Source: Minisyncoccota bacterium
GTDB taxonomy: Bacteria; Patescibacteriota; Minisyncoccia; Phycocordibacterales; UBA5272
Reading direction: 5' to 3'
Length of the DNA: 64,000 bases
Assembly (NCBI GenBank): GCA_018063165.1
Contig: JAGOQU010000001.1
Coordinates: 130,330-194,329, forward strand
Part shown: positions 9,705 through 51,158 of the stretch, in pieces
Layout: each line of letters starts with the position of its first letter
How positions within the stretch are numbered: the stretch's first letter is position 1
Made by a program: the position numbers and the translations under genes
The notes under the pieces: generated by a model
Seen by the model: the letters and a program-made list of their open reading frames with translations, nothing else
Told to the model about the DNA's origin: nothing
Database searches by the model: none

Positions 9705-9835
9705 AGAGAAGGGTAATATATTCTTATTCTATATGTATCTATGTTGTTGTCAATAATGTTAATATTTATTGACAAAAGTATAAAAAAATTTTAGTATAAA
9801 AATGCCCATTAAACACGTTCTTAAAAGGAAAAGAA

Positions 9836-10360
9836 ATGAATAAAGATTTTTTATCTTTTATTGGAGAAAAATTATTTGGTTTAAGAGTTATAATGTCGTT
9901 CTTTTTTGTAGGTTTAATCGTTGTTATTTTTGCTATTCTTTGGAAATTTTGTTTAGAAATAGGGCATCTTGTTTATGCTTTATTTGATAAAGAACTTGAG
10001 AAAACTGTTCTTATTATAAAAGTTCTTGAATTGGTTGATATGACAATGGTTGCTCAGCTTGTATGGGTTGTGGCACTTGCCGGTTTTTCTCTTTTTGTTA
10101 CTTCTGAACATTTTGACAAGAATAAAGAAATTTCAAAACCAGACTGGCTTGATCATGTAAATACTTACAACCTCAAACTTAAACTTGCATTTGCAATGAT
10201 AGCGATTTCTGGTGTTCACGCACTTAAAACATATTTGCAAGGAGGGGTTCCGTATGTAGAGATGATTGTTGTTGTGTGTATTCATTTTTTGTTTGTTCTT
10301 TCTGCTGTAGGAATTTCTTTTGCTGAGTATTTAACAAGAAAAGGTGATACCTCTAAGTAA
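9836..10360 (+). CDS. UPF0114 (YqhA) family membrane protein
   Basis: The N-terminus, LFGLRVIMSFFFVGLIVVIFAILWKFCLEIGHLVYALF, matches the YqhA-family consensus (SRWLLAPIYLGLSLAL...KFFQE). About 4 TM helices, 174 aa. Confidence 0.55.
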   Translation: MNKDFLSFIGEKLFGLRVIMSFFFVGLIVVIFAILWKFCLEIGHLVYALFDKELEKTVLIIKVLELVDMTMVAQLVWVVALAGFSLFVTSEHFDKNKEISKPDWLDHVNTYNLKLKLAFAMIAISGVHALKTYLQGGVPYVEMIVVVCIHFLFVLSAVGISFAEYLTRKGDTSK

Positions 10361-10391
10361 TATATAAAAGACACTATTTAATTATTTTTTT

Positions 10392-10425
10392 AAAACAGCA
10401 TCTTATGTAGATGTTGTTTTTTTAT
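10392..10425 (+). terminator. Rho-independent terminator
   Basis: Hairpin AACAGCATCTtatgtAGATGTTGTT followed by a T-run. Confidence 0.5.
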
Positions 10426-10509
10426 TTAAAATTAAAAAAGGAGAGTTATTTACATACTAAACGAAATAATAAGTATAAGATTGTTGGTATTATTGATATA
10501 CTTATATGT

Positions 10510-12066
10510 ATGAAAAAAATAAGCATTATTGTATTATCGTTCTTTTTTATAACTCCTAATCTTTTTGCTTTAGGATGTGTAGATATTAAAAGTAATCTTG
10601 CTCAGACACAAGAAAATGCATCTGTTAAGTTGCTTCAGGATTTTTTATTTGAAAAAGGTTTTTTACAGGCTAAACCAAATGGTTATTTTGGTGTAGGGAC
10701 ACTTGCTTCTGTAAAAAAATATCAAAAGAGTATTAACCTTTCTCAAGTTGGAGTAGCTGGTCCTGCAACTAGAGCTGCTATAAAAAAAGAAACTTGCTCA
10801 TCTTTAGTTACTCCGCATTTACAAGCTACTAGTACAAAAAGTGTAACTATTCAAAAAAAAGATGAAATAAAAGAGAGTATAAAAATACCAGAGACTAAAA
10901 CAAAAACAATTTCTGAAGAAAATAATAATAAAAGAAGTAAAGATGTTGAGACTATTTTACTGGGTCTTTATAATGACTTTTTATACACTGGAGGTGTAAT
11001 TCCTATGCCAGTTTTAGATATTCCGAAAGAGCTCTGTGTAGTACCTCAGTCTGTTATTAATGCAAACGCTACAGCTACGATACCAGTTTTACCATGTAGT
11101 AATTTTGTAGACATAACAAGACTTTCTCCTCATCGTTTAAAGAATATTCCTCGAGATCCTAAAATAGCTACAACGAGTACTCTTACTGGATACTTTGTAA
11201 CAAGAACTAATACTAATGATATTTCTGTTATAGCAAAGAATGCAGAAAATGGTATAACGATTAAAGCAACATGTAATTTTAATAATGCATGCAAAAATAT
11301 AGAGCGTATCTCACATGTTTTTTTCGATGTTCCAAATCTTGCTTCAACTAGCAGAAGTGTTCTTATTAAAGATTCTGCATTAGTTGTACCATTTGTCCTG
11401 TATGGTAAAAATTTCACAGCCTCTAATACTTTAACGTTATCTGCTAAATATTCTAATCAAAAATATATATTAGGCACCTTTCCTTCTTCAGACGGTAAAA
11501 TTATTACATTGCAAGCAAAAGATTTATCACGTAAAGTGTCTTGTGGTAATAGTTGTATACAAGAAATTCCTTTAGGTGATTATGAAATATCATTGAGTAA
11601 CCAAGGAGGTGTAAGTGTCAGTGTGATACCTGTTTCTATAAAAGGTTATTCTATGTCAGTTGTAGATAATAGTTATTCTGTAAAACCTGATACAAAAAAT
11701 ACAAAATTTGCAACAATTACTTTTTCTGTAGATATACCTGTTACTATAAAATCGTTAACGTTGACAGCAACAAATACAGCATCAGCTCTTTCAAGTAAAG
11801 TAAGTCGTTTAGTGGTGGAAGATGTTAATGAAAGTACTATGTCTAGTCCAGCAACCGGTGTCTTAAATTTAGGTTCAAAATCTATTAGCGCTGGTCAAGT
11901 AAAAAAATATAATTTATACACTGATGTTGGCATATTAGCGTATAGTGAAGTTGGAGCTGTCAGGTATTCCGGGTATATTACTGTAACTGATTCTATTACT
12001 GATAAAACACGTTCAGCCGATATTCAGATTCCTATTAAAGACTTATTTATAAATATTTCTTATTGA
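10510..12066 (+). CDS. Secreted protein with an N-terminal peptidoglycan-binding domain and a large beta-rich C-terminal region
   Basis: Signal peptide MKKISIIVLSFFFITPNLFALG, then the PG_binding_1-like segment VKLLQDFLFEKGFLQAKPNGYFGVGTLASVKKYQK. The remainder is S/T/N-rich repeats. Start placed at the internal Met. Confidence 0.65.
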   Translation: MKKISIIVLSFFFITPNLFALGCVDIKSNLAQTQENASVKLLQDFLFEKGFLQAKPNGYFGVGTLASVKKYQKSINLSQVGVAGPATRAAIKKETCSSLVTPHLQATSTKSVTIQKKDEIKESIKIPETKTKTISEENNNKRSKDVETILLGLYNDFLYTGGVIPMPVLDIPKELCVVPQSVINANATATIPVLPCSNFVDITRLSPHRLKNIPRDPKIATTSTLTGYFVTRTNTNDISVIAKNAENGITIKATCNFNNACKNIERISHVFFDVPNLASTSRSVLIKDSALVVPFVLYGKNFTASNTLTLSAKYSNQKYILGTFPSSDGKIITLQAKDLSRKVSCGNSCIQEIPLGDYEISLSNQGGVSVSVIPVSIKGYSMSVVDNSYSVKPDTKNTKFATITFSVDIPVTIKSLTLTATNTASALSSKVSRLVVEDVNESTMSSPATGVLNLGSKSISAGQVKKYNLYTDVGILAYSEVGAVRYSGYITVTDSITDKTRSADIQIPIKDLFINISY

Positions 12067-13399: not shown

Positions 13400-14305
13400 T
13401 TATTTAATAGATGATAAATCAGTTGCTATTGATCGCAATGTTTCGTTTACTACCTTTATTGCTGTGTTTACAGATTCGATATCATTTTTGATGGCATCTC
13501 TGGTTTTTTCTGTATTAGTACGAAGAGTTGATTCGGTTGTGACGTCTATTGTATACACTTTTGTTGATTGATTTAAGATGAGAGTTCTTAAATTTGTAAT
13601 GCTTGACTCTACTTGAGAAAGCTTATTGGTTACAACAGAAACATCTTTGCCTTCTTCTGCTAGAGATGCTGATCTATCTTTAATTTTTTGAATAACCTCC
13701 TCTTGACGTGTTACTTTCTTTGAAAGAGTGTCTGTTGCTTTTTTGTTGAGTTCTTGGAATTTATCATTAATCGAAAGAGCTAGATTTTTTTTCTTTTCAT
13801 CTTTTATAACAGTAAGATTTTTCTGCAGTTCTTCTCTCTTGTTTGCTACGTTTTTTCTAGTTTCTTCTCGTCTTGCTTCAATTTTAACTTTAAAATCTGC
13901 TCTAGTTTGTTCTACTTGAAGTCTGTTTTCTTCTCGTTGTTTCTTAATATCTTCTCTTGTGGTAGAAGCATTAAGTTTCGGCTGTCCTACTCGTTCTTTT
14001 AATAATGCTCTTGTATTTGAAGCATTCATTTGTTGTACATTTTTAACAGCTTCTCTTCTTTCTGATTGTAATACATCTACATCTTCTCTTCTGTCTCCTC
14101 GCATAGTAGTGATGGTTTCTTTTGTCTCCATGCGCATAGCTTTTCTCTCTTCAATACGTGCACGTACTGGAGCGGGTGCGGTTTGAGTATTTTCTATTGC
14201 TGCTGTTGGTGATATACCAATTGTTTCTTGCGCGTATGCCAAATAAGATGCAGATAGAACGCAACTAAGTATAGATATTGTTGATACGTGTAGTATTTTT
14301 TTCAT
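13400..14305 (-). CDS. Secreted coiled-coil protein
   Basis: Signal peptide MKKILHVSTISILSCVLSASYLAYA, then K/E/R-rich heptad-like sequence throughout. Confidence 0.55.
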   Translation of the reverse strand: MKKILHVSTISILSCVLSASYLAYAQETIGISPTAAIENTQTAPAPVRARIEERKAMRMETKETITTMRGDRREDVDVLQSERREAVKNVQQMNASNTRALLKERVGQPKLNASTTREDIKKQREENRLQVEQTRADFKVKIEARREETRKNVANKREELQKNLTVIKDEKKKNLALSINDKFQELNKKATDTLSKKVTRQEEVIQKIKDRSASLAEEGKDVSVVTNKLSQVESSITNLRTLILNQSTKVYTIDVTTESTLRTNTEKTRDAIKNDIESVNTAIKVVNETLRSIATDLSSIK

Positions 14306-14395
14306 TATATGAAAGTGTATTATTTTTTTAAGTGAATAAATATAGTGTAACAAGGTTTTTGTTTAATCAAAAATAATAACGTCTTTAAACGTCTA

Positions 14396-15304
14396 TTATT
14401 TTTTTATGTTTGAAGATTGGTTATTTGTGTATTGTTTAAGTATGGCTTGTATTCCAGCTAGATTTTCTTCCCATTCAATTGTTTCATGAGATTGTAATTC
14501 TACCGTAATAGCGGGGATGTTGATTGAAGATAGCCAATCATCTGCAGCTCCTGTTATTTCGTATGCATCAAATGATTGTATTGCTGGATATCCCGATGCT
14601 TGAGAGTAGAGATTCATAAGTGTGAGCGTTTCTTGCATTATTCCATTCTGACATTGTGAAGCAAAGACACTATTAGACTGACTATGCCAAAAAATAACAG
14701 CAGTTGGCTTTTCGGTAAGCATGAAATGTTGTATTGCTTTTGTTTCCGGTTCAGAGAAGGGTGCTGATCCAGCACTTACTATGTTTGATTGCCATGTGCT
14801 TTTTGGTTTCCATTTACAATCAAAATTACGATTTAGGTCTACATTGTTAGCATTAAAACGTCCGGATGTTAAAATTTTTTTATCGTTAGATACATCCTCA
14901 CGAGTAAAACGACCTTCTTTACCTGTAACTTTATACGCACCATCAGGATTAACAGAAGGTACTATACTTATGGTTATGTTTTTTGGAATACTTGTGGGGT
15001 TATTGGTGAGATAATCAATGAAAGTATATGAAAGTAAAATACTATTCCATTCATACCCACCATGAATACCACCAACAAAAACAAGATGAGTAGGTCCATC
15101 ACCGAAAGTATATTTTTCAATAGCGCGTTTTTCTATAGAAGTACCAATAATAGTTTTAATTGGCCAGGTAATTACTTTTTCCTCTTTTTTGTTAGTAATT
15201 TCTATTACTGGTGTTTTTTCGTGAAGTTTTATATATGTTCCTAGACTAAGGATAATAAGAATAAAAACTATTGCAATATTTTTTTTGGATAAAAGTGGTT
15301 GCAT
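14396..15304 (-). CDS. M14-family zinc carboxypeptidase, membrane-anchored, catalytic residues intact
   Basis: GGIHGGYEWN (Zn His/Glu region), VDLNRNF (the Asn-Arg motif), FWHSQSN (second Zn His) and AITVELQ (catalytic Glu). The ATG at 15304-15302 overlaps the upstream paralogue's stop (TAATG). Confidence 0.7.
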   Translation of the reverse strand: MQPLLSKKNIAIVFILIILSLGTYIKLHEKTPVIEITNKKEEKVITWPIKTIIGTSIEKRAIEKYTFGDGPTHLVFVGGIHGGYEWNSILLSYTFIDYLTNNPTSIPKNITISIVPSVNPDGAYKVTGKEGRFTREDVSNDKKILTSGRFNANNVDLNRNFDCKWKPKSTWQSNIVSAGSAPFSEPETKAIQHFMLTEKPTAVIFWHSQSNSVFASQCQNGIMQETLTLMNLYSQASGYPAIQSFDAYEITGAADDWLSSINIPAITVELQSHETIEWEENLAGIQAILKQYTNNQSSNIKK

Positions 15305-16203
15305 TATTTGGTGTAATATGTGAGTAATGCTTTCACTCCTGCTATATTTTTTGCCCAATCTGTGCCGGTATGATTTGTTAATAAAATACTAATAGCTGGA
15401 ATATTATTTTTTGCAAACCAGTTCACCATATCTCCGGTTGTTGCGTAAAAATCAAAACTGTCGTATGCAGGGTATCCGGAGGCTGTAGCAAATACTTTTG
15501 TAATCGCGCTTGTTTCTGTGGATACGCCATTGTTACAACTGGATGCAAAAACACCACCAGCTGCACTGTACCAAACTACTACAGATATAGGTGTATGTGT
15601 TTCTGTATATTCTTTAATAGCTTTACTTTCCGGTTCAGAGAATGTGTTACTTCCAGCGCTTACTGTTTTATTTTGCCATACACCTTCTGATTTCCAGTTA
15701 CAATCAAAATTTCTACTTAGATCAACATTATTTCCATTGAATCTACCAGATGTAACAACACTTTCTAAGGTTGATACATCTGTTTTCAAAAATCTTCCAG
15801 TTGTTCCTACGACTTTATGTAGACCATCAGGATTCATAACAGGGATAATTGTAATCTTTAGAGTGTCTGGAATACTATTTGGGTTTGCTTTAAAATAGTC
15901 CATAAGATCGTATGCAAGTAAAACCGTGTTCCATTCATATCCACCATGAATACCTCCAATCAGTAAAAGTTCATTCGTTCCTTTTCCGTAGTGATATGCA
16001 ACAATCTCATTTCCTTCAACAGATGTACCTATAACTGTTTTGGTTTTATCAATAACAGTTTCTGTGGTAGAAGAGTGATTGTTGGTGTTCTTTATTTCTT
16101 CAGTGTCAGTCGTTAAATCTATTTTCTCTACAGGTCTATCAAGTAACATATATACACCTACACCAATGATCAGTACCAAAATCACAATAAATATATTTTT
16201 CAT
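15304..16203 (-). CDS. M14-like paralogue with substituted catalytic residues (probable pseudo-peptidase)
   Basis: Same fold and the same GGIHGGYEWN segment. However VDLSRNF has Asn replaced by Ser, VWYSAAG has the second Zn His replaced by Tyr, and AISILLT has the catalytic Glu replaced by Leu. Confidence 0.65.
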   Translation of the reverse strand: MKNIFIVILVLIIGVGVYMLLDRPVEKIDLTTDTEEIKNTNNHSSTTETVIDKTKTVIGTSVEGNEIVAYHYGKGTNELLLIGGIHGGYEWNTVLLAYDLMDYFKANPNSIPDTLKITIIPVMNPDGLHKVVGTTGRFLKTDVSTLESVVTSGRFNGNNVDLSRNFDCNWKSEGVWQNKTVSAGSNTFSEPESKAIKEYTETHTPISVVVWYSAAGGVFASSCNNGVSTETSAITKVFATASGYPAYDSFDFYATTGDMVNWFAKNNIPAISILLTNHTGTDWAKNIAGVKALLTYYTK

Positions 16204-16244
16204 ATACGTTAAGTATACACTTCTCACAGCAATTAGATATCTTC

Positions 16245-17177
16245 CTAATCAAATATATGTATGAGATAAGTATCTATTTCTCTTTGGTCAATATCGTAGA
16301 AATTAAGTGTATTCTTGTGAAGATATGTAGCCAATTCTATACCAACAAAACGCCAATGCCACGGTTCATAAACGTAGTATTTATTACCTTTTGGATAAGA
16401 AAGTACAAATCCAAAACGGTAAGCATTATTAAGAAGCCATGTATAAGCGTCTGTTTTATCAAAAGCAGTAGTAAGTTGACCATTAAGTCCTGTTGTTATA
16501 AAGTCCAGTGTTACCCCAAGTTGATGCTCAGAATATCCTTGATCAGCAGAAAAGGTGTTGGAAGTTCCAGCGCCATATTTCACTGTATATGCTGATTTGA
16601 GTGACTTTTGTTCATCAAAGGATCTATATCCAGATTTTACATAAAGAGTAACTCCATCTGCTTTAGCAGAAGTAAATAAATGTAATAAATAAGGCAAAGA
16701 CTTTGTAGAAAAATATTCTTGTCTTGTTGAACTGTAGGTATACTCAGGTGGAATAGTACTTAAATCTAATGGTTTATAGTTTTCGTTTAAAAAGTATACT
16801 TTCGAATATTTTTTTAAAAGCTCAGGGTCTATTTGAGAAAGTTTCTGCAAATCACCGACTGTACCAGATATGGAACCAACTGTTTGTGCTACGCCACCAA
16901 CTTGATTTTTTACTGATTCAATATTTTGTTGTGTGTTGTTAAGAACATCAGAAATTCCTGTTGTCTGTGTATGTAAGTCAGTGATATTTTCTGAGAGTAA
17001 CTTCGTATTTTGCATTAAAGCATGTGAAGTAGAAGACAATTCACTGTTAAGAAAAAGTATATCTTTTTTTAAACTAGATATTTGTATATATCCATACACA
17101 ACAGAACCTCCTAATACAATAAAAATAATTCCAGTTAGAAAAACATATGATGATTTTTTTGGTGTATGTTGTTGCAA
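16245..17177 (-). CDS. M15 (VanY-type) D-alanyl-D-alanine carboxypeptidase family protein
   Basis: SGYRSFDEQ...SEHQLGVTLD (H-x6-D) ...EPWHWRFVG. There is an N-terminal TM plus a coiled-coil linker. Confidence 0.75.
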   Translation of the reverse strand: MQQHTPKKSSYVFLTGIIFIVLGGSVVYGYIQISSLKKDILFLNSELSSTSHALMQNTKLLSENITDLHTQTTGISDVLNNTQQNIESVKNQVGGVAQTVGSISGTVGDLQKLSQIDPELLKKYSKVYFLNENYKPLDLSTIPPEYTYSSTRQEYFSTKSLPYLLHLFTSAKADGVTLYVKSGYRSFDEQKSLKSAYTVKYGAGTSNTFSADQGYSEHQLGVTLDFITTGLNGQLTTAFDKTDAYTWLLNNAYRFGFVLSYPKGNKYYVYEPWHWRFVGIELATYLHKNTLNFYDIDQREIDTYLIHIFD

Positions 17178-40242: not shown

Positions 40243-40650
40243 CTAATTATTGTGTTTTAATCCTATGTATCCTGTATATATTACAAGTGCTGATATGGGT
40301 ATCATCGGAATAACCAGCATTGAAGCTAAGATATTTGTAGTGACGCCATCTTCTGAATATATACGTAGCAGAATTATGCTTGCGTATAATGATGTGCATA
40401 TATTTGTTAGTCCATAACAAGTGGTTATCCAAGTTATTTGAGCTGGGTATTTTGTTATCCAGCGTAGCGTTGTCAGTATGACAATGCAAGGTGAGACAAA
40501 CAAAATCAAAACAAATGAATGTATTACAAACCAAGATGCAGGGATGATTCCCCACCTAAAGAATAGTATAGGTATAATACCTATACTAAATAAACAAGTA
40601 AGAAGAGATGATACGGGGTGTATATACTCTTTTTTTAAAATATTTTTCAA
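40243..40650 (-). CDS. 4-TM membrane protein
   Basis: 135-aa hydrophobic ORF. Confidence 0.45.
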   Translation of the reverse strand: MKNILKKEYIHPVSSLLTCLFSIGIIPILFFRWGIIPASWFVIHSFVLILFVSPCIVILTTLRWITKYPAQITWITTCYGLTNICTSLYASIILLRIYSEDGVTTNILASMLVIPMIPISALVIYTGYIGLKHNN

Positions 40651-42173: not shown

Positions 42174-42284
42174 AAAGAAAAGTGCGAAACCGAAAGGTTT
42201 CGCACTTTTTACATTCTTTGAAGTGTCATATATTTCATTTCTTTTTCTTGTACCTTTTTTTCTTTTTCGTGTGGAGGGAGAGAT
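42174..42284. repeat. 111-bp direct repeat, copy A (3' coding end plus terminator)
   Basis: Identical apart from 1 mismatch to 42866-42976. Confidence 0.8.
42177..42210. terminator. Bidirectional terminator (copy A of the shared 3' module)
   Basis: AAAAGTGCGAAACCgaaaGGTTTCGCACTTTTT between convergent genes. Confidence 0.75.
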
Positions 42285-42766
42285 GTTGTGCAAAGAAGAT
42301 ATTCAATTAGAACTGACAAAAATATCAACATTGAAAAACAAAGAAAATTAAACAAAAAAATTAACTCAATAAGATTTGTTTCATTTTTACTGCCAAGAAA
42401 TATAAAGAAAGGAAGAGAAAGTATACAAAGAAAACTAACTAAAATTAGTATAATTCTAGGCTCTTTCCTATTTTTTATTTCAGCTGGAAGTATTCCGAGC
42501 GGCTGGTTTCTTTTCGAAATCATTTCCCATATCATGAGGTTTAAGGTGCATGTAGTCATAAAAACTAAATTTATGATTGCACTTATAAAATTACTTTCAA
42601 GTATAAATCTTGTTGTTCCTACGAGAAAGAAAACAAGTAATCCTACCCTTATAAGTGATAAGCAAAAGTTAGTCAAGTCTTTCCTAGTTATTTTTGTATA
42701 GAGTTCAAATTGCCTTACAGACCATTGTGTCATGTTAATAAGTCCTGTATCGATTGTAGAGAACAT
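42209..42766 (-). CDS. 4-TM membrane protein, paralogue A
   Basis: 185 aa. The N-terminus MFSTIDTGLI and the C-terminal 25 aa SLPPHEKEKKVQEKEMKYMTLQRM are shared with paralogue B. Confidence 0.5.
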   Translation of the reverse strand: MFSTIDTGLINMTQWSVRQFELYTKITRKDLTNFCLSLIRVGLLVFFLVGTTRFILESNFISAIINLVFMTTCTLNLMIWEMISKRNQPLGILPAEIKNRKEPRIILILVSFLCILSLPFFIFLGSKNETNLIELIFLFNFLCFSMLIFLSVLIEYLLCTTSLPPHEKEKKVQEKEMKYMTLQRM

Positions 42767-42865: not shown

Positions 42866-42976
42866 AAAGAAAAGTGCGAAACCGAAAGGTTTCGCACTTT
42901 TTACATTCTTTGAAGTGTCATATATTTTATTTCTTTTTCTTGTACCTTTTTTTCTTTTTCGTGTGGAGGTAGAGAT
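42866..42976. repeat. 111-bp direct repeat, copy B
   Basis: See copy A. Confidence 0.8.
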
Positions 42977-43437
42977 CTGGCACACAAAAAATATTCAACC
43001 ATTATGGTAAGAAATAATTGAAAAACAATACATACGCTATTTTTATATATATCATGTTCAACAAGAAAAAGGAGATACAAAAAGAAAATATTAATAGGAA
43101 AGGAAAAGAGCCAAATAAGTCTGATATCTTTTCTTGAAATAATTACCTTCGGTAAAGTACTTTCTTGTTTTTGTTTTTTTATTATCTTGTATTGTTGATT
43201 ACTAAGTATAAAAGTAAGCACACAATACATAATAAGATTAAAGAAAGCCGCTAAGCGTTGTAAAATAATATCTTGATTGTTGTAGACTAAAAATACAATA
43301 GAAATAATACTAACTATTTTTAGAAAAGTGGTACAAATATAAATAAGTTTTTTCTTAGTTATTGATGTATGTATTTCTAGTGTATGTAGTATTTTTTCAC
43401 TAATTTCTATTAATGCAGGATCAATTACAGAGAACAT
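42901..43437 (-). CDS. 4-TM membrane protein, paralogue B
   Basis: 178 aa. N-terminus MFSVIDPALI, the same C-terminal tail and the same terminator as paralogue A. The central region is divergent. Confidence 0.5.
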   Translation of the reverse strand: MFSVIDPALIEISEKILHTLEIHTSITKKKLIYICTTFLKIVSIISIVFLVYNNQDIILQRLAAFFNLIMYCVLTFILSNQQYKIIKKQKQESTLPKVIISRKDIRLIWLFSFPINIFFLYLLFLVEHDIYKNSVCIVFQLFLTIMVEYFLCARSLPPHEKEKKVQEKEIKYMTLQRM

Positions 43438-43539
43438 AAAAACCTTTCTATGAAATTATTTCACACAAAATCTATATCTAACTTACAGTAACATGTATAT
43501 TTAGTCAATATAACGTATACTTAGATGTATATTACTTGT

Positions 43540-46500
43540 ATGAATAAAAATAGCAAAGCACACAATATATTATTTGAAGATCGTTATAAAGCCTTAAATA
43601 AAGCTCAAAAGAAAGCAGTTGATACTATAGATGGACCGGTTATGGTGATAGCAGGTCCTGGGTCAGGTAAAACGGAACTTCTTTCTCTCCGTATTGGAAA
43701 TATTTTAAAAGCTGGCACTGCACGAGCGTCATCGATTCTCTGTCTTACATTTACAGAAACTGCCGCACGTAACATGAGAGAGCGACTTGAGAAACTTATA
43801 GGAGCAGATGCATACCGTGTTGCTATTTATACATTTCATGGTTTCTGTACAGATATCATTGGTAGATATCCAGAATATTTTTTTAATGCGACACATTTTA
43901 GGCCGGCAAGTGATCTGGCACAGAGTGAAATTTTGGAAAAGATATTTGAGAGACTTCCATATAAACATGTGCTTGGAGGTTTTCATCCTGAGCGGGGGTA
44001 TTCATATCTGAAAGAGTGTCAATCAAAAATAAAAGATATAAAAAAAGGAGGGCTAACACCAAGTAGGTTTAAGGAAATAATACAAGAAAACGCACTTGTA
44101 TATCCAATGCTTAATAAAATTCTTGCAGATAATTTACCTGATCGTGTCGGGAAGGATTCATACAATTCTTTTGTAACAATGAGAGACCTTTTCATACAGT
44201 CGGAAACATCACTCGGTGCGAGGTATGCTATTTCGATAGGTAGAGCGCTCGAGGCAGTAGACCAGACCGAAAAGAATACTCCGCTGTCTGCATGGAAAAG
44301 TGAGAACACAACAAAAGATGAAGCAGGTAACAGAGTGCTCAAAGATTTTTTACTTACAGAAAAATTACTTGCTCTTGGTGATGTATATGAGATGTATCAG
44401 GTTGCTCTCCATCAGAATGGGTATTTTGATTATGAAGATATGATACTTCAAGTGGTTGAAGCACTCACTAAACATATTTCTCTTCGTACTGAGTTAGAAG
44501 AAATGTATCAGTATATTATGGTTGATGAATTTCAAGATACGAACAACGCTCAGCTTTCACTTGTAAAAGCAATATCAAGTAATCCAGTTCATGAAGGAAA
44601 ACCTAATGTATGTGTGGTGGGTGATGACGATCAAGCAATTTATAAATTTCAAGGTGCAGAAATTTCTAATATTCTTTCTTTTAAAAAATTATATGATGAT
44701 GTAGAAGTTATTGTTCTTACTGAGAATTATCGTTCCACACAAAAGATTCTTGATTTTGCTCGAGCTATTGTTGTCCAGGGTTTTGAGCGTTTAGAGACAC
44801 GTGAAAAGATTAGTAAAAATCTTACAGCAAAAAATAATACATTACATGATGGTGATATTTATACGCTTTCATTTCCATCTCCTGAAGAAGAGTATGCGTA
44901 TATAGCAGGAGAAGTGGCTACGTTGCTTAAAAATAAAGTAGAAGCAAAAGAGATAGCATTAATAGCACGTGAACATAAACAACTTATTTTACTTCTTCCG
45001 TATCTTGATAAATTAGATATTCCGTATATATATACTCGTAAAGAAAACGTGTTTGATGAACAACATGTAAAAGAACTTATAACTCTTTGTCGTTTCCTTG
45101 CTACTATCGGTGACACAAAATATGAACGTGATGATTTGTTACCAAGTATTCTTGCGTTTCCATTTTGGGGACTTGATCGTATTTCTATTTGGAGAATTGC
45201 CGAGCAAGCTAAACGAGAAAATGTTTCTTGGCTTTCAGCTATGGAACAATCAAGCGATAAAAATATTGCTGAACTCGCAAAGTTTTTAATCGAACTGGGG
45301 ATAGCATCTCAAACAACACCACTTGAAATTATTTTAGACACTCTTATTGGAAGTAAAGATATTCCTCTTACTAGTGAATCACCTGATGACGACGCTTCTT
45401 TTTTGCGTGAAAATATTACCCTTACAACAGAGTTCACATCACCATACAAAGCTTTTTATTTTGGTAAAAGTGCGCTTAAAGAAAATGCGAGTTCGTATAT
45501 ACATTTTCTTTCGTCACTTAGAGTTTTTATGCGAGCACTTCGTGAGTATAAAGAAGGGGAGTCTCTTAGGGCACATGATGTAGGAGATTTTGTTGATATG
45601 CATGTATCATATTCAATACCGCTTATTAACGAAACTTCATTTGCACATAATGAAAATTCTATTCAATTACTTACTTCACATGGTGCAAAAGGTCTTGAGT
45701 TTGAATATGTTTTTGTGGTGGCTGTAAATGATGCTGTTTGGGCTGGAAGTAAAAAAGGTAGTAAGCTTTCATTTCCTGAGAATTTACCGTTAACCGGAGC
45801 GGGTGACAATGAAGATGATTTCATTAGACTCTTTTATGTAGCGCTCACACGTGCACGACATACTATATATATTACACATCATAAAAGTCCTCTTAGATTT
45901 TTACAAACAAGTGAATTACCAGAAACAAAAAATGAATACGCTGAAGTAGCTTCTTCGGAACTTTTGGCTCATGGACTTTCTGTATATCAAGCTCCACCAT
46001 TTGCAAAAGATGAAAGAGCTCTTCTTGAAAAAGTTGTAGAAGGATATATGCTTTCACCAACACATTTAAATAATTTTTTAAATATTATAGATGGTGGACC
46101 AATGATGTTTCTTGAACAAAATCTTCTTCGTTTTCCTCAAGCAAAAACAGCAAGTAGTGTTTATGGAACTGCTATACATAAAGCACTTGAGGATGCACAT
46201 GTTATGGTGCGTAAAGATGGAAAGCTTCCAAAAGTAGAAGCGCTTATAGGTATATTTGCTAAAGAATTAAAGTATGGAAGATTACAAGATTTTGAAGAAG
46301 ATAAATTACGTAATCGTGGTGAAAAAGTTCTCAGAACATATTATGAATTAAAAAAAGATGAAATCAAAAAAGGGTCTTTAGTAGAAATTAATTTTTCAAA
46401 ACAATCTGTTATGGTAGATGGTGCGTTGCTCACTGGTAAAATAGATAAAGTTATAGAAGATGAGGATAAAAATTGGATTGTGGTTGATTTAAAAACTGGT

Positions 46501-46863
46501 AAAGGGTTCAGTGAGTGGAATGAGAAGGGGCAGAGTGCTTATGATGAAATTAAATTACATCATTATAAATATCAACTTATGATGTATAAAATACTTGTTG
46601 ATAACTCACGTGATTATAGTGTACACACAGTAACTTCTGGTGTACTTGAATTTGTTGAAGAAGAAGTTGAACAGAAGATACAAGAACTCTCTCTTATTTT
46701 TTCTGGTCATGATATAGATCATGAACTTCCTCGTTTTAAAAAACTTATCGTATCTGTATATAAAAAAATTGCTACACTTGATTTTCCAGATACAGAAAAA
46801 TATGAAAAAACGTTAGAAGGTATTAAAGAGTTTGAAGAAGATTTGATTGCTGGTGTTGTGTAA
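43540..46863 (+). CDS. UvrD/PcrA-type helicase fused to a C-terminal PD-(D/E)xK (RecB-like) nuclease domain (AddA-like)
   Basis: Walker A AGPGSGKTELL. The UvrD motifs DEFQDTN and VGDDDQAIY, then YRST. The C-terminal ...VVDLKTGK...YKYQLMMYKIL (DxK plus QxxxY) is a RecB-family nuclease signature. Confidence 0.85.
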   Translation: MNKNSKAHNILFEDRYKALNKAQKKAVDTIDGPVMVIAGPGSGKTELLSLRIGNILKAGTARASSILCLTFTETAARNMRERLEKLIGADAYRVAIYTFHGFCTDIIGRYPEYFFNATHFRPASDLAQSEILEKIFERLPYKHVLGGFHPERGYSYLKECQSKIKDIKKGGLTPSRFKEIIQENALVYPMLNKILADNLPDRVGKDSYNSFVTMRDLFIQSETSLGARYAISIGRALEAVDQTEKNTPLSAWKSENTTKDEAGNRVLKDFLLTEKLLALGDVYEMYQVALHQNGYFDYEDMILQVVEALTKHISLRTELEEMYQYIMVDEFQDTNNAQLSLVKAISSNPVHEGKPNVCVVGDDDQAIYKFQGAEISNILSFKKLYDDVEVIVLTENYRSTQKILDFARAIVVQGFERLETREKISKNLTAKNNTLHDGDIYTLSFPSPEEEYAYIAGEVATLLKNKVEAKEIALIAREHKQLILLLPYLDKLDIPYIYTRKENVFDEQHVKELITLCRFLATIGDTKYERDDLLPSILAFPFWGLDRISIWRIAEQAKRENVSWLSAMEQSSDKNIAELAKFLIELGIASQTTPLEIILDTLIGSKDIPLTSESPDDDASFLRENITLTTEFTSPYKAFYFGKSALKENASSYIHFLSSLRVFMRALREYKEGESLRAHDVGDFVDMHVSYSIPLINETSFAHNENSIQLLTSHGAKGLEFEYVFVVAVNDAVWAGSKKGSKLSFPENLPLTGAGDNEDDFIRLFYVALTRARHTIYITHHKSPLRFLQTSELPETKNEYAEVASSELLAHGLSVYQAPPFAKDERALLEKVVEGYMLSPTHLNNFLNIIDGGPMMFLEQNLLRFPQAKTASSVYGTAIHKALEDAHVMVRKDGKLPKVEALIGIFAKELKYGRLQDFEEDKLRNRGEKVLRTYYELKKDEIKKGSLVEINFSKQSVMVDGALLTGKIDKVIEDEDKNWIVVDLKTGKGFSEWNEKGQSAYDEIKLHHYKYQLMMYKILVDNSRDYSVHTVTSGVLEFVEEEVEQKIQELSLIFSGHDIDHELPRFKKLIVSVYKKIATLDFPDTEKYEKTLEGIKEFEEDLIAGVV

Positions 46864-46949
46864 AGTAGATAATATTGACTTTATTGATTTTTCTTGTAGT
46901 ATTGTGTGTGGAGTATATTGTTAACATTAATTAATGTAAGGAGACACTA

Positions 46950-47408
46950 ATGAATGATTCTTTAAAGAATAATGCTTGTTTCCCGGTTTTTTTTGACCGT
47001 GCACAATTGGTTAAACAAAATCAACTTGGTGAGAAATACAATGCTGCTTTTATGTATGCAAAAAGTATTTTTTTAAAAGCGGGTGCTATTTGTGATTATG
47101 AAAAATATTTTTTATCTCCACAAATTGTTGAAAGGTTTTTTATTAATGATAAAAAAGTGTTAGGGTATCAATGTGTTTTTTTTGATAAATACACAGAACT
47201 CAGTTCTTTGGAAAGAGAAACATTGCAAGGATTAACTTTTAAGGAGCTTGTTGATTCTTTAGATAGACAAGTTCTTGTAAAAATTGGTCTTGTTTGGGAA
47301 AAAGGTCCAGATAAAGCTCCCACATTGACACTTTGTTCTAACACTATGGAAATCAAAGATTTAGATTTTATGAAATTTATGCTTAAACCTTTTGATTTTT
47401 ATATGTAA
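46950..47408 (+). CDS. Hypothetical protein
   Basis: 152 aa with a strong AAGGAGA RBS. Aromatic-rich. No motif recognised. Confidence 0.5.
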   Translation: MNDSLKNNACFPVFFDRAQLVKQNQLGEKYNAAFMYAKSIFLKAGAICDYEKYFLSPQIVERFFINDKKVLGYQCVFFDKYTELSSLERETLQGLTFKELVDSLDRQVLVKIGLVWEKGPDKAPTLTLCSNTMEIKDLDFMKFMLKPFDFYM

Positions 47409-47423
47409 TAAAAGGAGATAAGA

Positions 47424-47891
47424 ATGTGTATGTTCTATGGAAGAAATTTTTGGAGCGATGCTGTTGTGCAAGATGAATGTGATTTTAAAATTCACTTTCC
47501 TTTTGCTTATGAACATAAAGAGTATCTTGAACGACAAATGAAGAGTCTTTGTGATAAAAGAACTTACGATAGTATTATTCTGTCTAAAATTTTTCTTTAC
47601 AAGAATTATACAGATTGTATTGTGAGGTGCTATCATCATAGTACTTTTCTGCAAAGAAAAAAGTTTGCTGAAAAACATCCAACATTTCATTTATTTTTTG
47701 GAACTTTTTTACCATCGATAGAACTTGCGTCAGTTACTATCCGGTGGGAATATGGGGTTAATCAGATTCCTGTGCTTCATACGTATGAGTTTTATTTTGA
47801 TATAGAACTACAAGATTCAGTTTTAAAAGAATTGTTATCTCCAAGTGCAGCAAATGACCCTCGTTTTTCAAAAAAAATAACATGGGAATAA
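47424..47891 (+). CDS. Hypothetical protein
   Basis: 155 aa with a strong AAGGAGA RBS, starting 16 nt after the previous stop. Confidence 0.5.
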   Translation: MCMFYGRNFWSDAVVQDECDFKIHFPFAYEHKEYLERQMKSLCDKRTYDSIILSKIFLYKNYTDCIVRCYHHSTFLQRKKFAEKHPTFHLFFGTFLPSIELASVTIRWEYGVNQIPVLHTYEFYFDIELQDSVLKELLSPSAANDPRFSKKITWE

Positions 47892-47963
47892 CGTATAAAC
47901 ACATCATATATAACATATGATGTGTTTTTAATTTGTGTATCACCTGATATACTAAAATTTATT

Positions 47964-48851
47964 ATGGCTGATAAATATTCTGCGGTGTGGGTATCGCATT
48001 CTTCTATGGGGGATTTTATTAAATGTCCACGTTTGTATTATTTACATAATATGTATAAAAGTGGAAAGACAGGCAGAAAAATGTCTATTGTAAGTCCTTA
48101 CATGTCTTTAGGTATTGCTGTTCATGAGGTGTTAGAAGGTCTAGCAGAATATCCTGCACACGAAAGGCTTGATCGTGATTTATTTGCTTTGTATGAAGAA
48201 GCGTGGAGTAAAGTAAGTGGTAAAAAGGGTGGTTTCACTTCAACCGAAGAAGAAGAAATGTTTAAAAGCAGAGGAAAAGAAATGATTTCTAATGTTATTA
48301 ATGATCCAAAATTTTTATCTAACAAATGTATAAAACTTAAACGTGACACTATGCCATGTAATTTTTATATTAGTGAAGATCATAATATTATTTTAAATGG
48401 TCTTGTGGATTGGATAGAATATTTACCAGAAACTGACTCTCTTCATATAGTTGATTTTAAAACTGGGAAACATGAAGAAAAAGAAGGGTCTCTCCAACTT
48501 CCTATTTATCTTCTTCTTTGTGACGCTCTTCAAAAAAGAAAAGTAACTAAAGCAAGTTATTGGTATTTAGATAGTGGAAAAATGGTAGAAAAAGAATTAC
48601 CAGATATCGAAGTTGCTAAACGAGATGTGCTTGATACAGCAATGAAAGTAAAAGAAGCTAGACGTATTGCAAAGAAAGAAGGCGAAGAACAAGTATTTGT
48701 ATGTCCTTCTGGAAAGTATGATAAGGATACTAAAGAGGGTGGTTGTGTACACTGTCGTCCATATGAGTGGATATTAACTGGAGATTCTCGTGTCGAGCCA
48801 GTTGGTATTGGTGGATTTAATCAAGATATATTTATTCTTAATAAAGAATAA
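47964..48851 (+). CDS. Cas4/AddB-like PD-(D/E)xK nuclease with Cys residues placed for a 4Fe-4S cluster
   Basis: An N-terminal Cys (FIKCPRLYY). The nuclease core IVDFKTGKHEEKEGSLQLPIYLLL (DxK, QxxxY). A C-terminal Cys triad CPSGKYDKDTKEGGCVHC. Confidence 0.65.
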   Translation: MADKYSAVWVSHSSMGDFIKCPRLYYLHNMYKSGKTGRKMSIVSPYMSLGIAVHEVLEGLAEYPAHERLDRDLFALYEEAWSKVSGKKGGFTSTEEEEMFKSRGKEMISNVINDPKFLSNKCIKLKRDTMPCNFYISEDHNIILNGLVDWIEYLPETDSLHIVDFKTGKHEEKEGSLQLPIYLLLCDALQKRKVTKASYWYLDSGKMVEKELPDIEVAKRDVLDTAMKVKEARRIAKKEGEEQVFVCPSGKYDKDTKEGGCVHCRPYEWILTGDSRVEPVGIGGFNQDIFILNKE

Positions 48852-48852
48852 A

Positions 48853-49478
48853 TTAGTATTCTAAACGATACGTTTTATAATTTCTTTTTGTTGGTGTTAT
48901 AACTTCCATGAAAGAAAATTTTTCTTGTATATCAATATTTTCTTTTACTGCTTCTGTCACAAAAATTTCTCCTGTTTTTGCAATATCTTCTCCTAGTTTA
49001 CTTGCTGCATTTACTTCTTCACCGAAAACATCAGTGTCTCCTATCTTTAGTACTTTTCCGTAGCCAAGGCCTACACATAAAAGTACTTGTTCTTCTTTAC
49101 TTTTCTTTTTGTTGTATATTTTGAGTGATTTTTGCATCTTGACCGAAGCATGAAGTGCTTTAGAAATATTTCTAAAAATAACTAAATAGCTATCGCCTTC
49201 AATTTTTAAAAGTATACCGTCATGATCTTCTAATATAGGAATAAGCAATCTTTGAGATTCTTGTATTGTTTGCAAAAAATGTATAATACCAAACTTTTCT
49301 ACATGTCTAGAAAACCAGATAGATCTGTAAACATGACACACCATTCTTCTCCAAACAAATCCCATATTCTTTTGTCTATTTCTTTTTTATTGGTACCTTT
49401 TTGTAATCGTTCTGTAATAAGATTTTCCAATCTATCTTCCGAAGCTGAAGTGAGTATAAGTTTTTGTAAGTCATAAGG
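48853..49478 (-). pseudogene. Stand-alone class III nucleotidyl cyclase catalytic domain, split by a frameshift at an A4 run (plus-strand 49311-49314)
   Basis: The downstream frame gives ...KIEGDSYLVIF...GLGYGKVLKIGD...FGEEVNAASKLGE (cyclase motifs). The upstream frame, my own translation, gives ...RIWDLFGEEWCVMFTDLSGFLDM*, which carries the first metal-binding Asp in F(T)DLSGF. One extra T on the minus strand would fuse them as ...TDLSGFSRHVEKFG... Confidence 0.55.
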
Positions 49479-49544
49479 TGTGCAAGTGATATATAATATC
49501 TATATTCTAGTATTATTTTATGAAATAGTAAAAGTGTATAAAAT

Positions 49545-49585
49545 AAAAAGGGTGATTCGCGTAGCGAATCACCATTTTGTTTATG
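49545..49585 (-). terminator. Terminator downstream of the PhoH2 gene
   Basis: GGTGATTCGCgtaGCGAATCACC with a T-run on the minus strand. Confidence 0.65.
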
Positions 49586-49593
49586 TTTATATA

Positions 49594-51158
49594 TTACAAT
49601 ACATCATTTGCATAACTTGCAAGTCTGGAACGTTCACCTGTTGGAAGTATGAGATGTCCACCATATTTCCATCCTTTGAAGCGTTCTACAACATATGTAA
49701 GACCAGAAGATCCTTCTGTCATATATGGTGCGTCAATTTGCGTTAAATTTCCAAGGAGAACCATTTTTGTACCAGGACCTGCACGCGTTACAAGTAATTT
49801 TGTTTGCTTTTGTGTCAGGTTTTGAGCTTCGTCTACTATTACAAATTTATTGAGAAATGTTCTTCCTCTCATGAAGCCTAAGGTTTTTACTGAAATCATT
49901 TCAGTGATTTCTTTTGCTTTTTCTCGTTTTTCCATTTCCCTTATTGTGTGAGAATGGTTAGATGTACTAGGTCGTTCAATTTTTTTTGTTTCACTGGTTT
50001 GGGTGTATTCAGCAAGAAACTCTAAATTGTCGTGTAATGCACCCATCCATGGATCCATCTTTTCTTTTTCTGTTCCAGGTAGGAATCCGATATCTTCACT
50101 TGTAGAAATTAATGCTCTTGTTATGATAATTTCTGAGTATATCCCTTTTCTTACTTGATCAATGCCCGCAGCTAATGCAAGGAGTGTTTTTCCTGTACCT
50201 GCAACACCAAGTAAAGTAACAATGTCAATATTTTGATCCATAAGCAGATTTGCAGCATAATTCTGCTCTCTGTTACGAGTCATAATACCAAGAATATTAT
50301 TTTTAGGTATCGAATAATCAGTAATTGTTTCAAGAATTGTTACTGCGTCATCTTTATCAACAATTCGAAGATCTTTTTTAAAAGATGACTCTCTTAAATC
50401 GTAAATAAATTCATTAGGAAGTAGTGGCTTTGCAAGTTCGTGAGGTGTTTTATACTGAGTCTGTACTCCATTTTTAGAAGAGGCAAAATTATCAAGCTTG
50501 TCCCAAAATCTCTGATGAAGTGCAGTTGATCCTGGGTATAGTAAATCTATATCTTGAATTACCACGTCATTAAAATAATCCTGAACCAGAATGCCTTGAG
50601 TTTTTGCTTCAATAAACATATTGTTATCTTTGGTTACAAGAATAACTTGATATTTACCTTCAAATTTTTCAGTAAGCTTTTTGGCAACAGAAAGAATTTT
50701 TGTATCTGCTTTTGTTGTACTCTCGTCAATTTCAATATCGTTTGTCTGAAGATACAGTCTACCAGTTGCAATTTTTTGGACGCTTCCTTAAGTGGGATAC
50801 CGTCTCTAATGTTCTGAGAATGTTTAGATAATTCACTTTTTAGAGTTCGAGAAAACTCTCTACTATTTCTTGCTGTATCGTCGGTACCTTTTTTGTGATT
50901 ATCAAGCTCAGCGCGTACAACTGTTGGTATGTAGACATCATTATCTTCAAATTTAAAGATACAATTAGGGTCACTAAGAATAACATTTGTATCCAAGATA
51001 AACAATTTCCGAAGGGGAATGATTTTTACTTTTTTTCTTTCAACTTGAGAAAGATTTCCTTTTTTTTGAGATGACAAGTTTACTGCTTGTTGTTGTAGAC
51101 GTGAACGAGTTTGCTTTCCTTCAAATACATTCCGAGTGGAATTATTTTTTGGTAACAT
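49594..51158 (-). pseudogene. PhoH2 (PIN domain fused to PhoH-like ATPase), interrupted by a frameshift at a T6/A6 homopolymer (50773-50778)
   Basis: The upstream ORF (50634-51158) holds the N-terminal half of the PIN domain (FILDTNVILSDPN...VVRAEL). The alternative frame continues IATGRLYLQTNDIEIDESTTKADTKILSVAKKL...VILVTKDNNMFIEAK straight into the PhoH ORF (Walker A GVAGTGKT, then FVIVDEAQN). A7 instead of A6 on the minus strand would restore ...ASKKIATG... Confidence 0.7.

Follow-up and report, generated by a model that had tools for sequence, protein, structure and literature searches.

How candidate phyla radiation (CPR) bacteria, which have tiny genomes and no cultured genetics, resect broken DNA has not been established. 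A run of four genes in one such genome raises the question of whether they encode a single end-processing machine or a pair of conserved enzymes with something else lodged between them. The genes lie in a stretch of 64,000 nucleotides from a Minisyncoccota bacterium (contig JAGOQU010000001.1; hereafter the window), where hel encodes a helicase-nuclease, s1 and s2 encode two small proteins, and nuc encodes a second nuclease (Table 1). The nearest relatives of the window genes are Parcubacteria/Paceibacterota, Nomurabacteria and Yonathbacteria metagenome-assembled genomes, which places the stretch in a CPR/Patescibacteria genome. An initial annotation proposed that the four products form an AddAB-like machine with two accessory subunits, or else an uncatalogued defence module. 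Our analysis retains from the former proposal the recurrent pair of hel and nuc and gives up the small genes as general constituents. On balance, we favour a reading in which hel and nuc form a reduced AddAB-like end-resection pair characteristic of one Parcubacteria (CPR) lineage, and S1 and S2, the products of the small genes, would be a clade-specific, fast-evolving and separately expressed cassette and not subunits.

All four open reading frames (ORFs) are present on the forward strand, as annotated. We scanned Pfam, NCBIfam, PADLOC, PHROGs and Rfam, together with solved structures in the PDB. Judged by its domains, the architecture of hel is AddA/RecB-like. Pfam recovers UvrD-helicase (4e-64), UvrD_C (2e-34) and, at the C-terminus, PDDEXK_1 (PF12705; 9e-15, 55.7 bits, above the gathering cut-off of 22). 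Helicase motifs I-VI are intact (GPGSGKT39, DEFQD329, GDDDQAIY361, NYRS396, HGAKGLE714 and VALTRA767), as are the D/DxK/QxxxY motifs of the nuclease (GKID966, VDLKT982 and QLMMY1012), in agreement with the annotated UvrD-family helicase and C-terminal RecB-type nuclease. There are no cysteines beyond residue 517, and the nuclease domain is without Fe-S cysteines. NCBIfam matches to PcrA, UvrD and AddA are partial and all far under cut-off, the best being PcrA (295 bits versus 911), and the closest solved structures include PcrA (9e-55) and AddA (7e-11), with PcrA and UvrD nearest. The ORF opens upstream at the ATG at 43525 (1112 aa), the second candidate ATG being that at 43540, and no Shine-Dalgarno (SD) site precedes either.

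The nuc product is a stand-alone nuclease of a different kind. PDDEXK_1 matches it over residues 10-240 (8e-21; 75.5 bits versus the gathering cut-off of 22), and the Cas4 models fall under their cut-offs (PF01930, 17.2 versus 22.7 bits; TIGR00372, 29.1 versus 65). The catalytic residues D149, D164-x-K166 and Q178..Y182 are invariant across 30 homologues, as are four cysteines, C21 ... C247-x13-C261-x2-C264. These are predicted to hold an Fe-S cluster through one N-terminal and three C-terminal staples. The initial annotation described a Cas4/AddB-style CxxxxC triad with an N-terminal Cys, a pattern that gives way to the spacing above. Scans of Pfam and NCBIfam found no helicase-like domain in nuc, and the rexB model reaches 11.9 bits versus 718. 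The closest solved relative is ACE1 (9iab/9iac; E ~1e-5). Homologues of nuc number 3842, all named top matches belong to the Parcubacteria group, and JGI annotation labels some homologues 'helicase/DNAse subunit B'. Viral contigs and phage records yielded no close relatives of nuc.

The argument for a partnership comes from how the two genes travel. Among 35 nuc loci having at least 5 kb on each side of nuc, hel is upstream in 20. Conversely, nuc is found downstream of hel wherever the contig is long enough (12 GTDB genomes and further metagenomic loci), with hel 62-86% identical to the window copy. A second hel type (1066-1074 aa, 43-45% identical) stands upstream of nuc genes that are 62-83% identical (L017, L021, L034, L043, L044 and L049), and in L069 and L079 the order is reversed, nuc being followed by a 976-977-aa protein with UvrD and PDDEXK_1 domains. 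Because the pairing recurs with a divergent hel type and in reversed order, we take the partnership to be real. The two genes are a recurrent pair and a conserved two-gene unit whose linkage is not obligatory. One further locus, L023, was grouped with L017 as a carrier of the divergent hel type.

The pair also lies in conserved surroundings. L001, a metagenomic contig of 111 kb and our main relative for pairwise comparison, shares the gene order of the window through L9, L27, HD, TerC, hel, s1, s2, nuc, cyclase, PIN-PhoH, YgjP, SpoU, HI0933-like, MreB, MreC and PBP2. Between the two sequences, the ratio of nonsynonymous to synonymous substitution rates (dN/dS) is 0.11 for hel, 0.11 for nuc, and 0.08-0.11 across hel, nuc and TerC. 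The window is GC-poor, at 0.325 overall and 0.29-0.36 across 2-kb windows, and cumulative GC skew climbs steadily. This is a housekeeping neighbourhood that is vertically inherited and under purifying selection, unlike a defence island.

Compared with AddAB of B. subtilis (AddA/AddB; PDB 3U44, 4CEH), hel resembles AddA in having one superfamily 1A (SF1A) UvrD-like motor and a C-terminal RecB-type nuclease without Fe-S, nuc resembles the AddB nuclease in being a PD-(D/E)XK enzyme with one N-terminal and three C-terminal cysteines, and in both systems the genes are adjacent on the chromosome. The two systems differ in that nuc has only 295 residues and is without the ~800-aa inactivated-helicase domain of AddB (ATP-binding, Chi-reading), that hel falls under the AddA models (TIGR02785 addA_Gpos, 100 versus 707.65 bits; TIGR02784 addA_alphas, 104 versus 860.75), and that hel and nuc have separate promoter-like signals and are unlinked in many relatives. 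By wide margins, hel and nuc miss the curated models of AddA, AddB and Cas4; the pair is AddAB-like at best and not a member of that family. If the analogy holds, hel would load at a DNA end and translocate 3'->5' with its single SF1A motor, its RecB-type nuclease cutting the strand that it tracks. In turn nuc, in essence an AddB nuclease domain or a solo Cas4, would degrade the 5'-ended strand, and the outcome would be a 3' tail for RecA. Both the strand assignments and the complex between hel and nuc are thus extrapolated from domain architecture and from AddAB and Cas4. A scan of the 64-kb window for Chi-like word skew, which was underpowered, gave nothing significant.

The small genes behave differently. 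Both proteins lack matches in Pfam, NCBIfam, PADLOC and PHROGs, as do eight further family members, which bears out the annotated absence of any recognisable motif. A JetB match among S proteins (E 0.012, 13 bits) was dismissed as chance. The family profile found nothing among PDB sequences (best E 0.47), and S relatives were absent from viral contigs and phage records. AlphaFold2 models of S1 and S2, built from 4-row alignments, had a mean predicted local distance difference test score of 38 and 42, too poor for fold comparison. A word-indexed search of 5.8 billion proteins with s1 and s2 returned near-identical copies only. An exhaustive search of 1.84 billion representative proteins with an s1+s2 profile gave 13 matches, about 10 of them true. 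Nine of the matches are small, at 118-165 aa (the one of 118 aa being a fragment), and collinear with the profile over most of their own length; the repeat protein P0123 (860 aa) was discarded as spurious. As delimited here, the S family comprises proteins of 150-165 aa that match the s1+s2 profile and are encoded between hel and nuc. It has 14 members, with conserved columns F, C, FF, YxC, W, G, PxL and LxP.

Within this family, s1 and s2 are weak but real paralogues. A full-length alignment of the two shows 25-28% identity, hhalign joins them over 117 columns (E 0.016), and the similarity of the L001 pair has a shuffle z of 8.5, with 0 of 2000 shuffles as good. In the family tree, S1-type and S2-type proteins fall into separate clades, which points to an old tandem duplication. 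The S1-type proteins are mostly acidic (isoelectric point (pI) 4.7-5.0; window s1, pI 6.3) and the S2-type proteins near-neutral to basic. The s1 of L001 is 57% identical to that of the window, at a dN/dS of 0.16, so s1 is a real protein under purifying selection. Minus-strand ORFs overlapping s1 and s2 were rejected as coding, with higher dN/dS and no family. Orthologues of S are 20-57% identical, as against 77-88% for hel and nuc at these loci, meaning that the S genes diverge several-fold faster than their neighbours.

The distribution of S genes explains much of their apparent association with hel and nuc. All S-family clusters with recoverable context adjoin nuc on its upstream side, with hel further upstream wherever the contig reaches (Table 1). 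In the hel tree, the S-bearing loci with full hel and nuc (the window, L101, L113, L001 and L106) are monophyletic. We therefore attribute the co-location to one origin in the slot between hel and nuc followed by vertical descent, and not to repeated association. Copy number within the clade is 1 or 2, either type can occur alone, and at least one S gene is kept throughout. Relatives without S include L010, L012, L013 and L004, in which hel is 75-77% identical to that of the window. The initial annotation's four-gene order is therefore not conserved among relatives; outside one sub-clade the slot is empty or holds unrelated ORFs. The spacer can be as short as 33 bp (L018/L019) or 88 bp (L006, L046) and as long as 2408 bp (L017). 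The slot is empty in L018/L019, L006 and L046, and elsewhere it holds unrelated ORFs, many of them on the opposite strand.

Besides S, the occupants of the slot are c8 (a 104-aa protein on the plus strand), an mTERF-like gene, a small membrane protein and at least six minus-strand families, A-F; in all, at least eight mutually unrelated small-ORF families are found there. An all-versus-all hhalign comparison of the slot families and S showed no detectable relationship, the best pair being famA-famE (E 0.003), and on this result one hidden family behind all slot ORFs was rejected. Both the TerC-hel junction and the stretch just downstream of nuc are equally variable. Because these flanking junctions vary alike, the plasticity is regional and not peculiar to the hel-nuc junction. 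A compositional anomaly of the spacers was also considered and rejected, since the high GC of some relatives' spacers follows their own genome GC with a modest excess only.

The expression signals further separate the small genes from their neighbours. Spacings are 86 nt between hel and s1, 15 nt between s1 and s2, and 72 nt between s2 and nuc. The tight coupling reported initially thus stands for s1 and s2 and fails on either side of them, the latter gap containing a hairpin and the TGATATACT box. Both annotated AAGGAGA ribosome-binding sites are where they were said to be, each 5 nt before its ATG. In a survey of 56 window ORFs, an SD-like motif preceded 8 and was strong in 6, s1 and s2 among these six. 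Part of the promoter-like site of the S cassette, TTGTAGTAT, is also present before the first S gene of L001, L106 and L104, and a hairpin with a T-run follows the last plus-strand slot gene in 7 of the 7 S-bearing loci examined. These signals, unlike those of the core genes, suggest that s1-s2 is an autonomous expression unit. A TATACT-type box lies upstream of many window genes. Before nuc, nearly every locus of the hel-linked clade, including those with a 33-bp spacer, has its extended form TGnTATACT, which ends 6-14 nt from the ATG, and no SD site is present there; some 25 related loci carry the box, among them L001, L018/L019, L100, L106, L010 and L017. A conserved box of this kind without an SD site would give nuc its own promoter and a near-leaderless mRNA.

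A trace of exchange is visible within the slot itself. A block of near-identity between the window and L001 (Table 1) spans the intergenic region together with most of s2 before it and 95 nt of nuc after it, with breakpoints inside s2 and nuc, and its flanks are far more diverged (66% identity in the s1 region, 82% in the rest of nuc). The synonymous substitution rate of s2 is 0.11 versus 0.8-2.0 in its neighbours. By these sequence comparisons, the block is probably a recent homologous-recombination tract between diverged lineages. An assembly chimera is disfavoured because three independent assemblies carry the L001 version. Separately, the slot holds the same genes (c8, famB, famA) in L004 and in L044, although their hel types differ, which marks the locus as a mosaic. 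Our reading of S1 and S2 is accordingly that of an old tandem duplicate that arose in the slot in one sub-clade and has been shuffled by homologous recombination via the conserved flanks.

Table 1. Features of the hel-nuc region in the window, positions of c8 in relatives, and gene orders between hel and nuc in S-bearing loci.
Feature or locus	Positions	Strand	Description
TATACT -10-like box	43516-43521	+	Upstream of hel; putative promoter
hel	43540-46863	+	1107 aa; SF1A UvrD/PcrA-type helicase with C-terminal RecB-type PD-(D/E)XK nuclease
Promoter-like site TTGACT-16-TAGTAT	46875-46902	+	TG before -10 box; before S cassette; putative
SD site AAGGAGA of s1	46938-46944	+	5 nt upstream of ATG
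s1	46950-47408	+	152 aa; S1-type S-family member, cytosolic
SD site AAGGAGA of s2	47412-47418	+	5 nt upstream of ATG
s2	47424-47891	+	155 aa; S2-type paralogue of s1
Recombination block (probable)	47498-48058	.	561 bp, 97.7% identical to L001 (13 mismatches)
Terminator-like hairpin with T-run	47897-47932	+	13-bp AT-rich stem; closes S cassette
TGATATACT extended -10-like box	47945-47953	+	Ends 10 nt before nuc ATG
nuc	47964-48851	+	295 aa; stand-alone PD-(D/E)XK nuclease, Cas4 / AddB-nuclease-domain type
c8 in L004	6167-6484
c8 in L010	11299-11610
c8 in L012	11291-11605
c8 in L044	5488-5802
c8 in L107	749-1063
L101			hel, mTERF-like 167 aa, S2, nuc
L106			hel, S1, S2, nuc
L108 / L107			hel, c8, S2, mTERF-like, 102-aa membrane protein, nuc
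L104			hel, S, nuc
L113			hel, S1, nuc
P0131 contig			hel, c8, S2, nuc
L100			S then nuc (tblastn-confirmed); short contig
L112			S then cut 133-aa ORF at nuc position (putative nuc); short contig

Several of our own observations weigh against the reading that we favour. The helicase core of hel is nearer to PcrA/UvrD than to AddA/RecB, the interaction between hel and nuc is argued by analogy alone, and all promoter and terminator calls were made from sequence. In addition, the S family is confined to the hel-nuc slot (9 of 9 representative clusters with context, together with the window and L001) and has never been lost within its clade, a pattern that would also be expected of genes tied functionally to hel or nuc. 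These last points speak as well for a four-protein machine, in which S1 and S2 would be dedicated accessory or regulatory subunits in the sub-clade, either substituting for the absent AddB/RecC-type helicase-like domain (end binding, Chi-like regulation) or acting as fast-diversifying modulators. The purifying selection on s1, the pairing of acidic S1-type with near-neutral to basic S2-type proteins, which would suit a heterodimer, and a nuc without the AddB N-terminal domain all point the same way. We nevertheless consider such a machine improbable. All S contexts are orthologous within one narrow clade, so that descent alone explains the co-location; the sister lineages L010, L012, L013 and L004 work without S, and L018, L006 and L046 without any insert. 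Either S type can be missing, orthologue identities as low as those of S are unlike a conserved subunit interface, and the S genes carry separate expression signals. A broader version, in which the slot is a dedicated accessory slot and S1/S2, c8, the mTERF-like protein and minus-strand families A-F are interchangeable modulators of a minimal AddAB-like enzyme, strikes us as distinctly improbable. The slot proteins might then be specificity or Chi-like regulators, or decoys against phage end-protection or inhibitor proteins, diversified by divergence and cassette exchange. Overall, S1 and S2 are probably not core parts of the hel-nuc machine. We lean modestly toward dispensable, clade-specific cargo of a recombination-prone slot and away from modulators of hel or nuc, and the constant retention of S inside its sub-clade may be compatible with a clade-specific accessory role.

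The pair itself can also be questioned. Contrary to the expectation that the helicase and the Cas4-like gene always occur together, 13 of the 35 nuc loci have no helicase within 5 kb, their neighbours being CTP synthase/FtsX, AlaRS, DNA polymerase III alpha or GyrB. Because nuc is unlinked in these loci and has its own promoter-like box, conserved even at a 33-bp spacer, the two enzymes could act separately, which tells against our reading as well. On this account hel would be a UvrD-like repair helicase-nuclease and nuc a housekeeping solo-Cas4-like nuclease, with inherited synteny behind their adjacency and S as unrelated cargo. Identities of the two genes are also discordant (hel 45% and nuc 80% in L017; hel 75% and nuc 66% in L004). 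Chance synteny does not predict pairing with two divergent hel types and in both orders, and the complementary nucleases, one RecB-type and cysteine-free and the other an Fe-S enzyme of Cas4/AddB type, mirror AddA and AddB; we judge independence unlikely. The remaining alternative is the anti-phage defence module raised initially, in which hel and nuc would be the effectors and the hypervariable small proteins would serve as sensors, confer specificity or act as decoys against phage inhibitors. Its appeal lies in a hypervariable, recombining slot that resembles arms-race loci, in PADLOC profiles for GajB (3e-79), Cas4, an Argonaute-associated Cas4-like nuclease and DruK that match hel or nuc, in the Argonaute partner ACE1 as closest solved relative of nuc, and in UvrD-Cas4 fusions tied to defence contexts (PMC5704561). 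The PADLOC matches, however, reflect generic UvrD-core and PD-(D/E)XK similarity, and within ~10 kb there is no GajA, Argonaute, restriction-modification, Cas1/2 or other defence partner, nor were mobile-element genes found. The core synteny is conserved and vertically inherited, with a dN/dS of 0.11 and ordinary GC, relatives are absent from viral contigs and phage records, and the flanking junctions are equally variable, so that the variability is not specific to hel-nuc. A defence module is therefore disfavoured and, in our estimation, very unlikely.

Comparison with other known systems leads to a similar picture. RecBCD and AdnAB likewise combine SF1 helicases with RecB-family nuclease domains that act on both strands of a DNA end; here RecC and RecD have no equivalent, a second motor is absent, and hel matches RecB and AdnB weakly. 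The likeness of hel to Gabija is limited to the generic UvrD core of GajB, and no GajA-like (ATPase-TOPRIM) gene is found among the neighbours of hel. ACE1 is an Argonaute-associated Cas4-family enzyme (PDB 9IAB/9IAC; PMC12094033) of a size similar to nuc (273-277 aa) and with a common DxK/QxxxY core. It differs from nuc in that no Argonaute gene is near nuc, and the similarity is limited to ~120-145 residues of the nuclease core. Unlike CRISPR-associated Cas4, nuc has no cas1 or cas2 within ~10 kb, where the neighbours are HD, TerC, cyclase, PIN-PhoH, YgjP, SpoU and similar genes. The Rfam scan of the window found tRNA alone and showed no CRISPR, no dedicated repeat scan having been made.

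Solo Cas4-family genes have been described in many CPR genomes, including Parcubacteria and Nomurabacteria (Hudaiberdiev et al. 2017, PMC5704561). The same survey reported UvrD-PDDEXK_1 fusions and unfused UvrD and Cas4-like operons in non-defence contexts, for which a repair role was suggested, in addition to the UvrD-Cas4 fusions tied to defence. Its pfam12705 solo-Cas4 and UvrD-Cas4-like proteins are the same kind of gene set as hel and nuc, but a fused helicase-nuclease beside a free-standing Cas4-like gene, the hypervariable slot and the S family lying in between, is a CPR arrangement that was not described there (PMC5704561). A literature search on AddAB or RecBCD in Patescibacteria found nothing beyond that study. 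Genes of these kinds, and their occurrence in CPR genomes, are thus already known. What appears to be new is the S family, the hypervariable slot, and an AddB-like partner cut down to its nuclease domain with its own near-leaderless promoter-like box.

By analogy with AddAB, hel and nuc, a widespread pair, form a plausible minimal end-processing system in which nothing of 'AddB' is left but the Fe-S nuclease domain. If this is true, the pair would show how much an AddAB-type enzyme of the smallest kind achieves when it has no Chi-reading domain. The two small genes carry a caution, as close spacing and good ribosome-binding sites do not prove that proteins are subunits. The S cassette is a clean example of clade-restricted, fast-evolving, recombining genes between two conserved partners. 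Current understanding is not overturned by these findings.

Other occupants and neighbours of the slot deserve mention. The c8 protein is conserved at 102-106 aa, has a weak DUF2103 match (E 0.045) and is encoded directly after hel in several relatives; in L028, a helicase-less locus, c8 lies directly after nuc. We rate c8 above S1 and S2 as a possible conserved small partner, though the window is without it. The mTERF-like protein (165-167 aa; L101 5343-5846, L107 1808-2305) is encoded beside an S2-type gene, and its match to Pfam mTERF (E 0.0035) is under the cut-off. Proteins of this type are unusual in bacteria. Between TerC and hel, a hydrophobic ORF of 178 aa (42901-43437, minus strand) is 53% identical to its L001 counterpart and fast-evolving (dN/dS 0.27); it is present in some relatives only, and TerC abuts hel in L005, L009, L010 and L018. 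Strong GC-rich bidirectional terminator-like hairpins at 42869-42902 and 49551-49573 bracket the region from this gene through the cyclase gene. Several of the SD-bearing ORFs of the window are unknown or variable small genes (40243-40650, 42209-42766, s1 and s2).

Elsewhere in the window, the adenylate/guanylate cyclase-domain gene downstream of nuc (48853-49365, minus strand, with ~49366-49480) appears frameshifted. Its N-terminal part (RIWDLFGEEWCVMFTDLSGF) lies in a different frame from the 170-aa ORF, and the orthologues in L001, L017 and L018 are intact at 207 aa. PhoH (49594-50619, minus strand, 341 aa) and PIN (50634-51158, minus strand, 174 aa) are separate ORFs in different frames, and relatives have a single PIN-PhoH fusion of 517-529 aa; the separation in the window reflects a frameshift, in a pseudogene or by sequencing error, or else a true split. 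Further away, four ORFs of ~310 aa with TTG or GTG starts occupy 13400-17177 on the minus strand and comprise two M14 zinc carboxypeptidases, one VanY D-Ala-D-Ala carboxypeptidase and one unassigned product. This carboxypeptidase run lies near peptidoglycan-binding and beta-helix proteins (8226-12066), together forming a cell-wall remodelling cluster.

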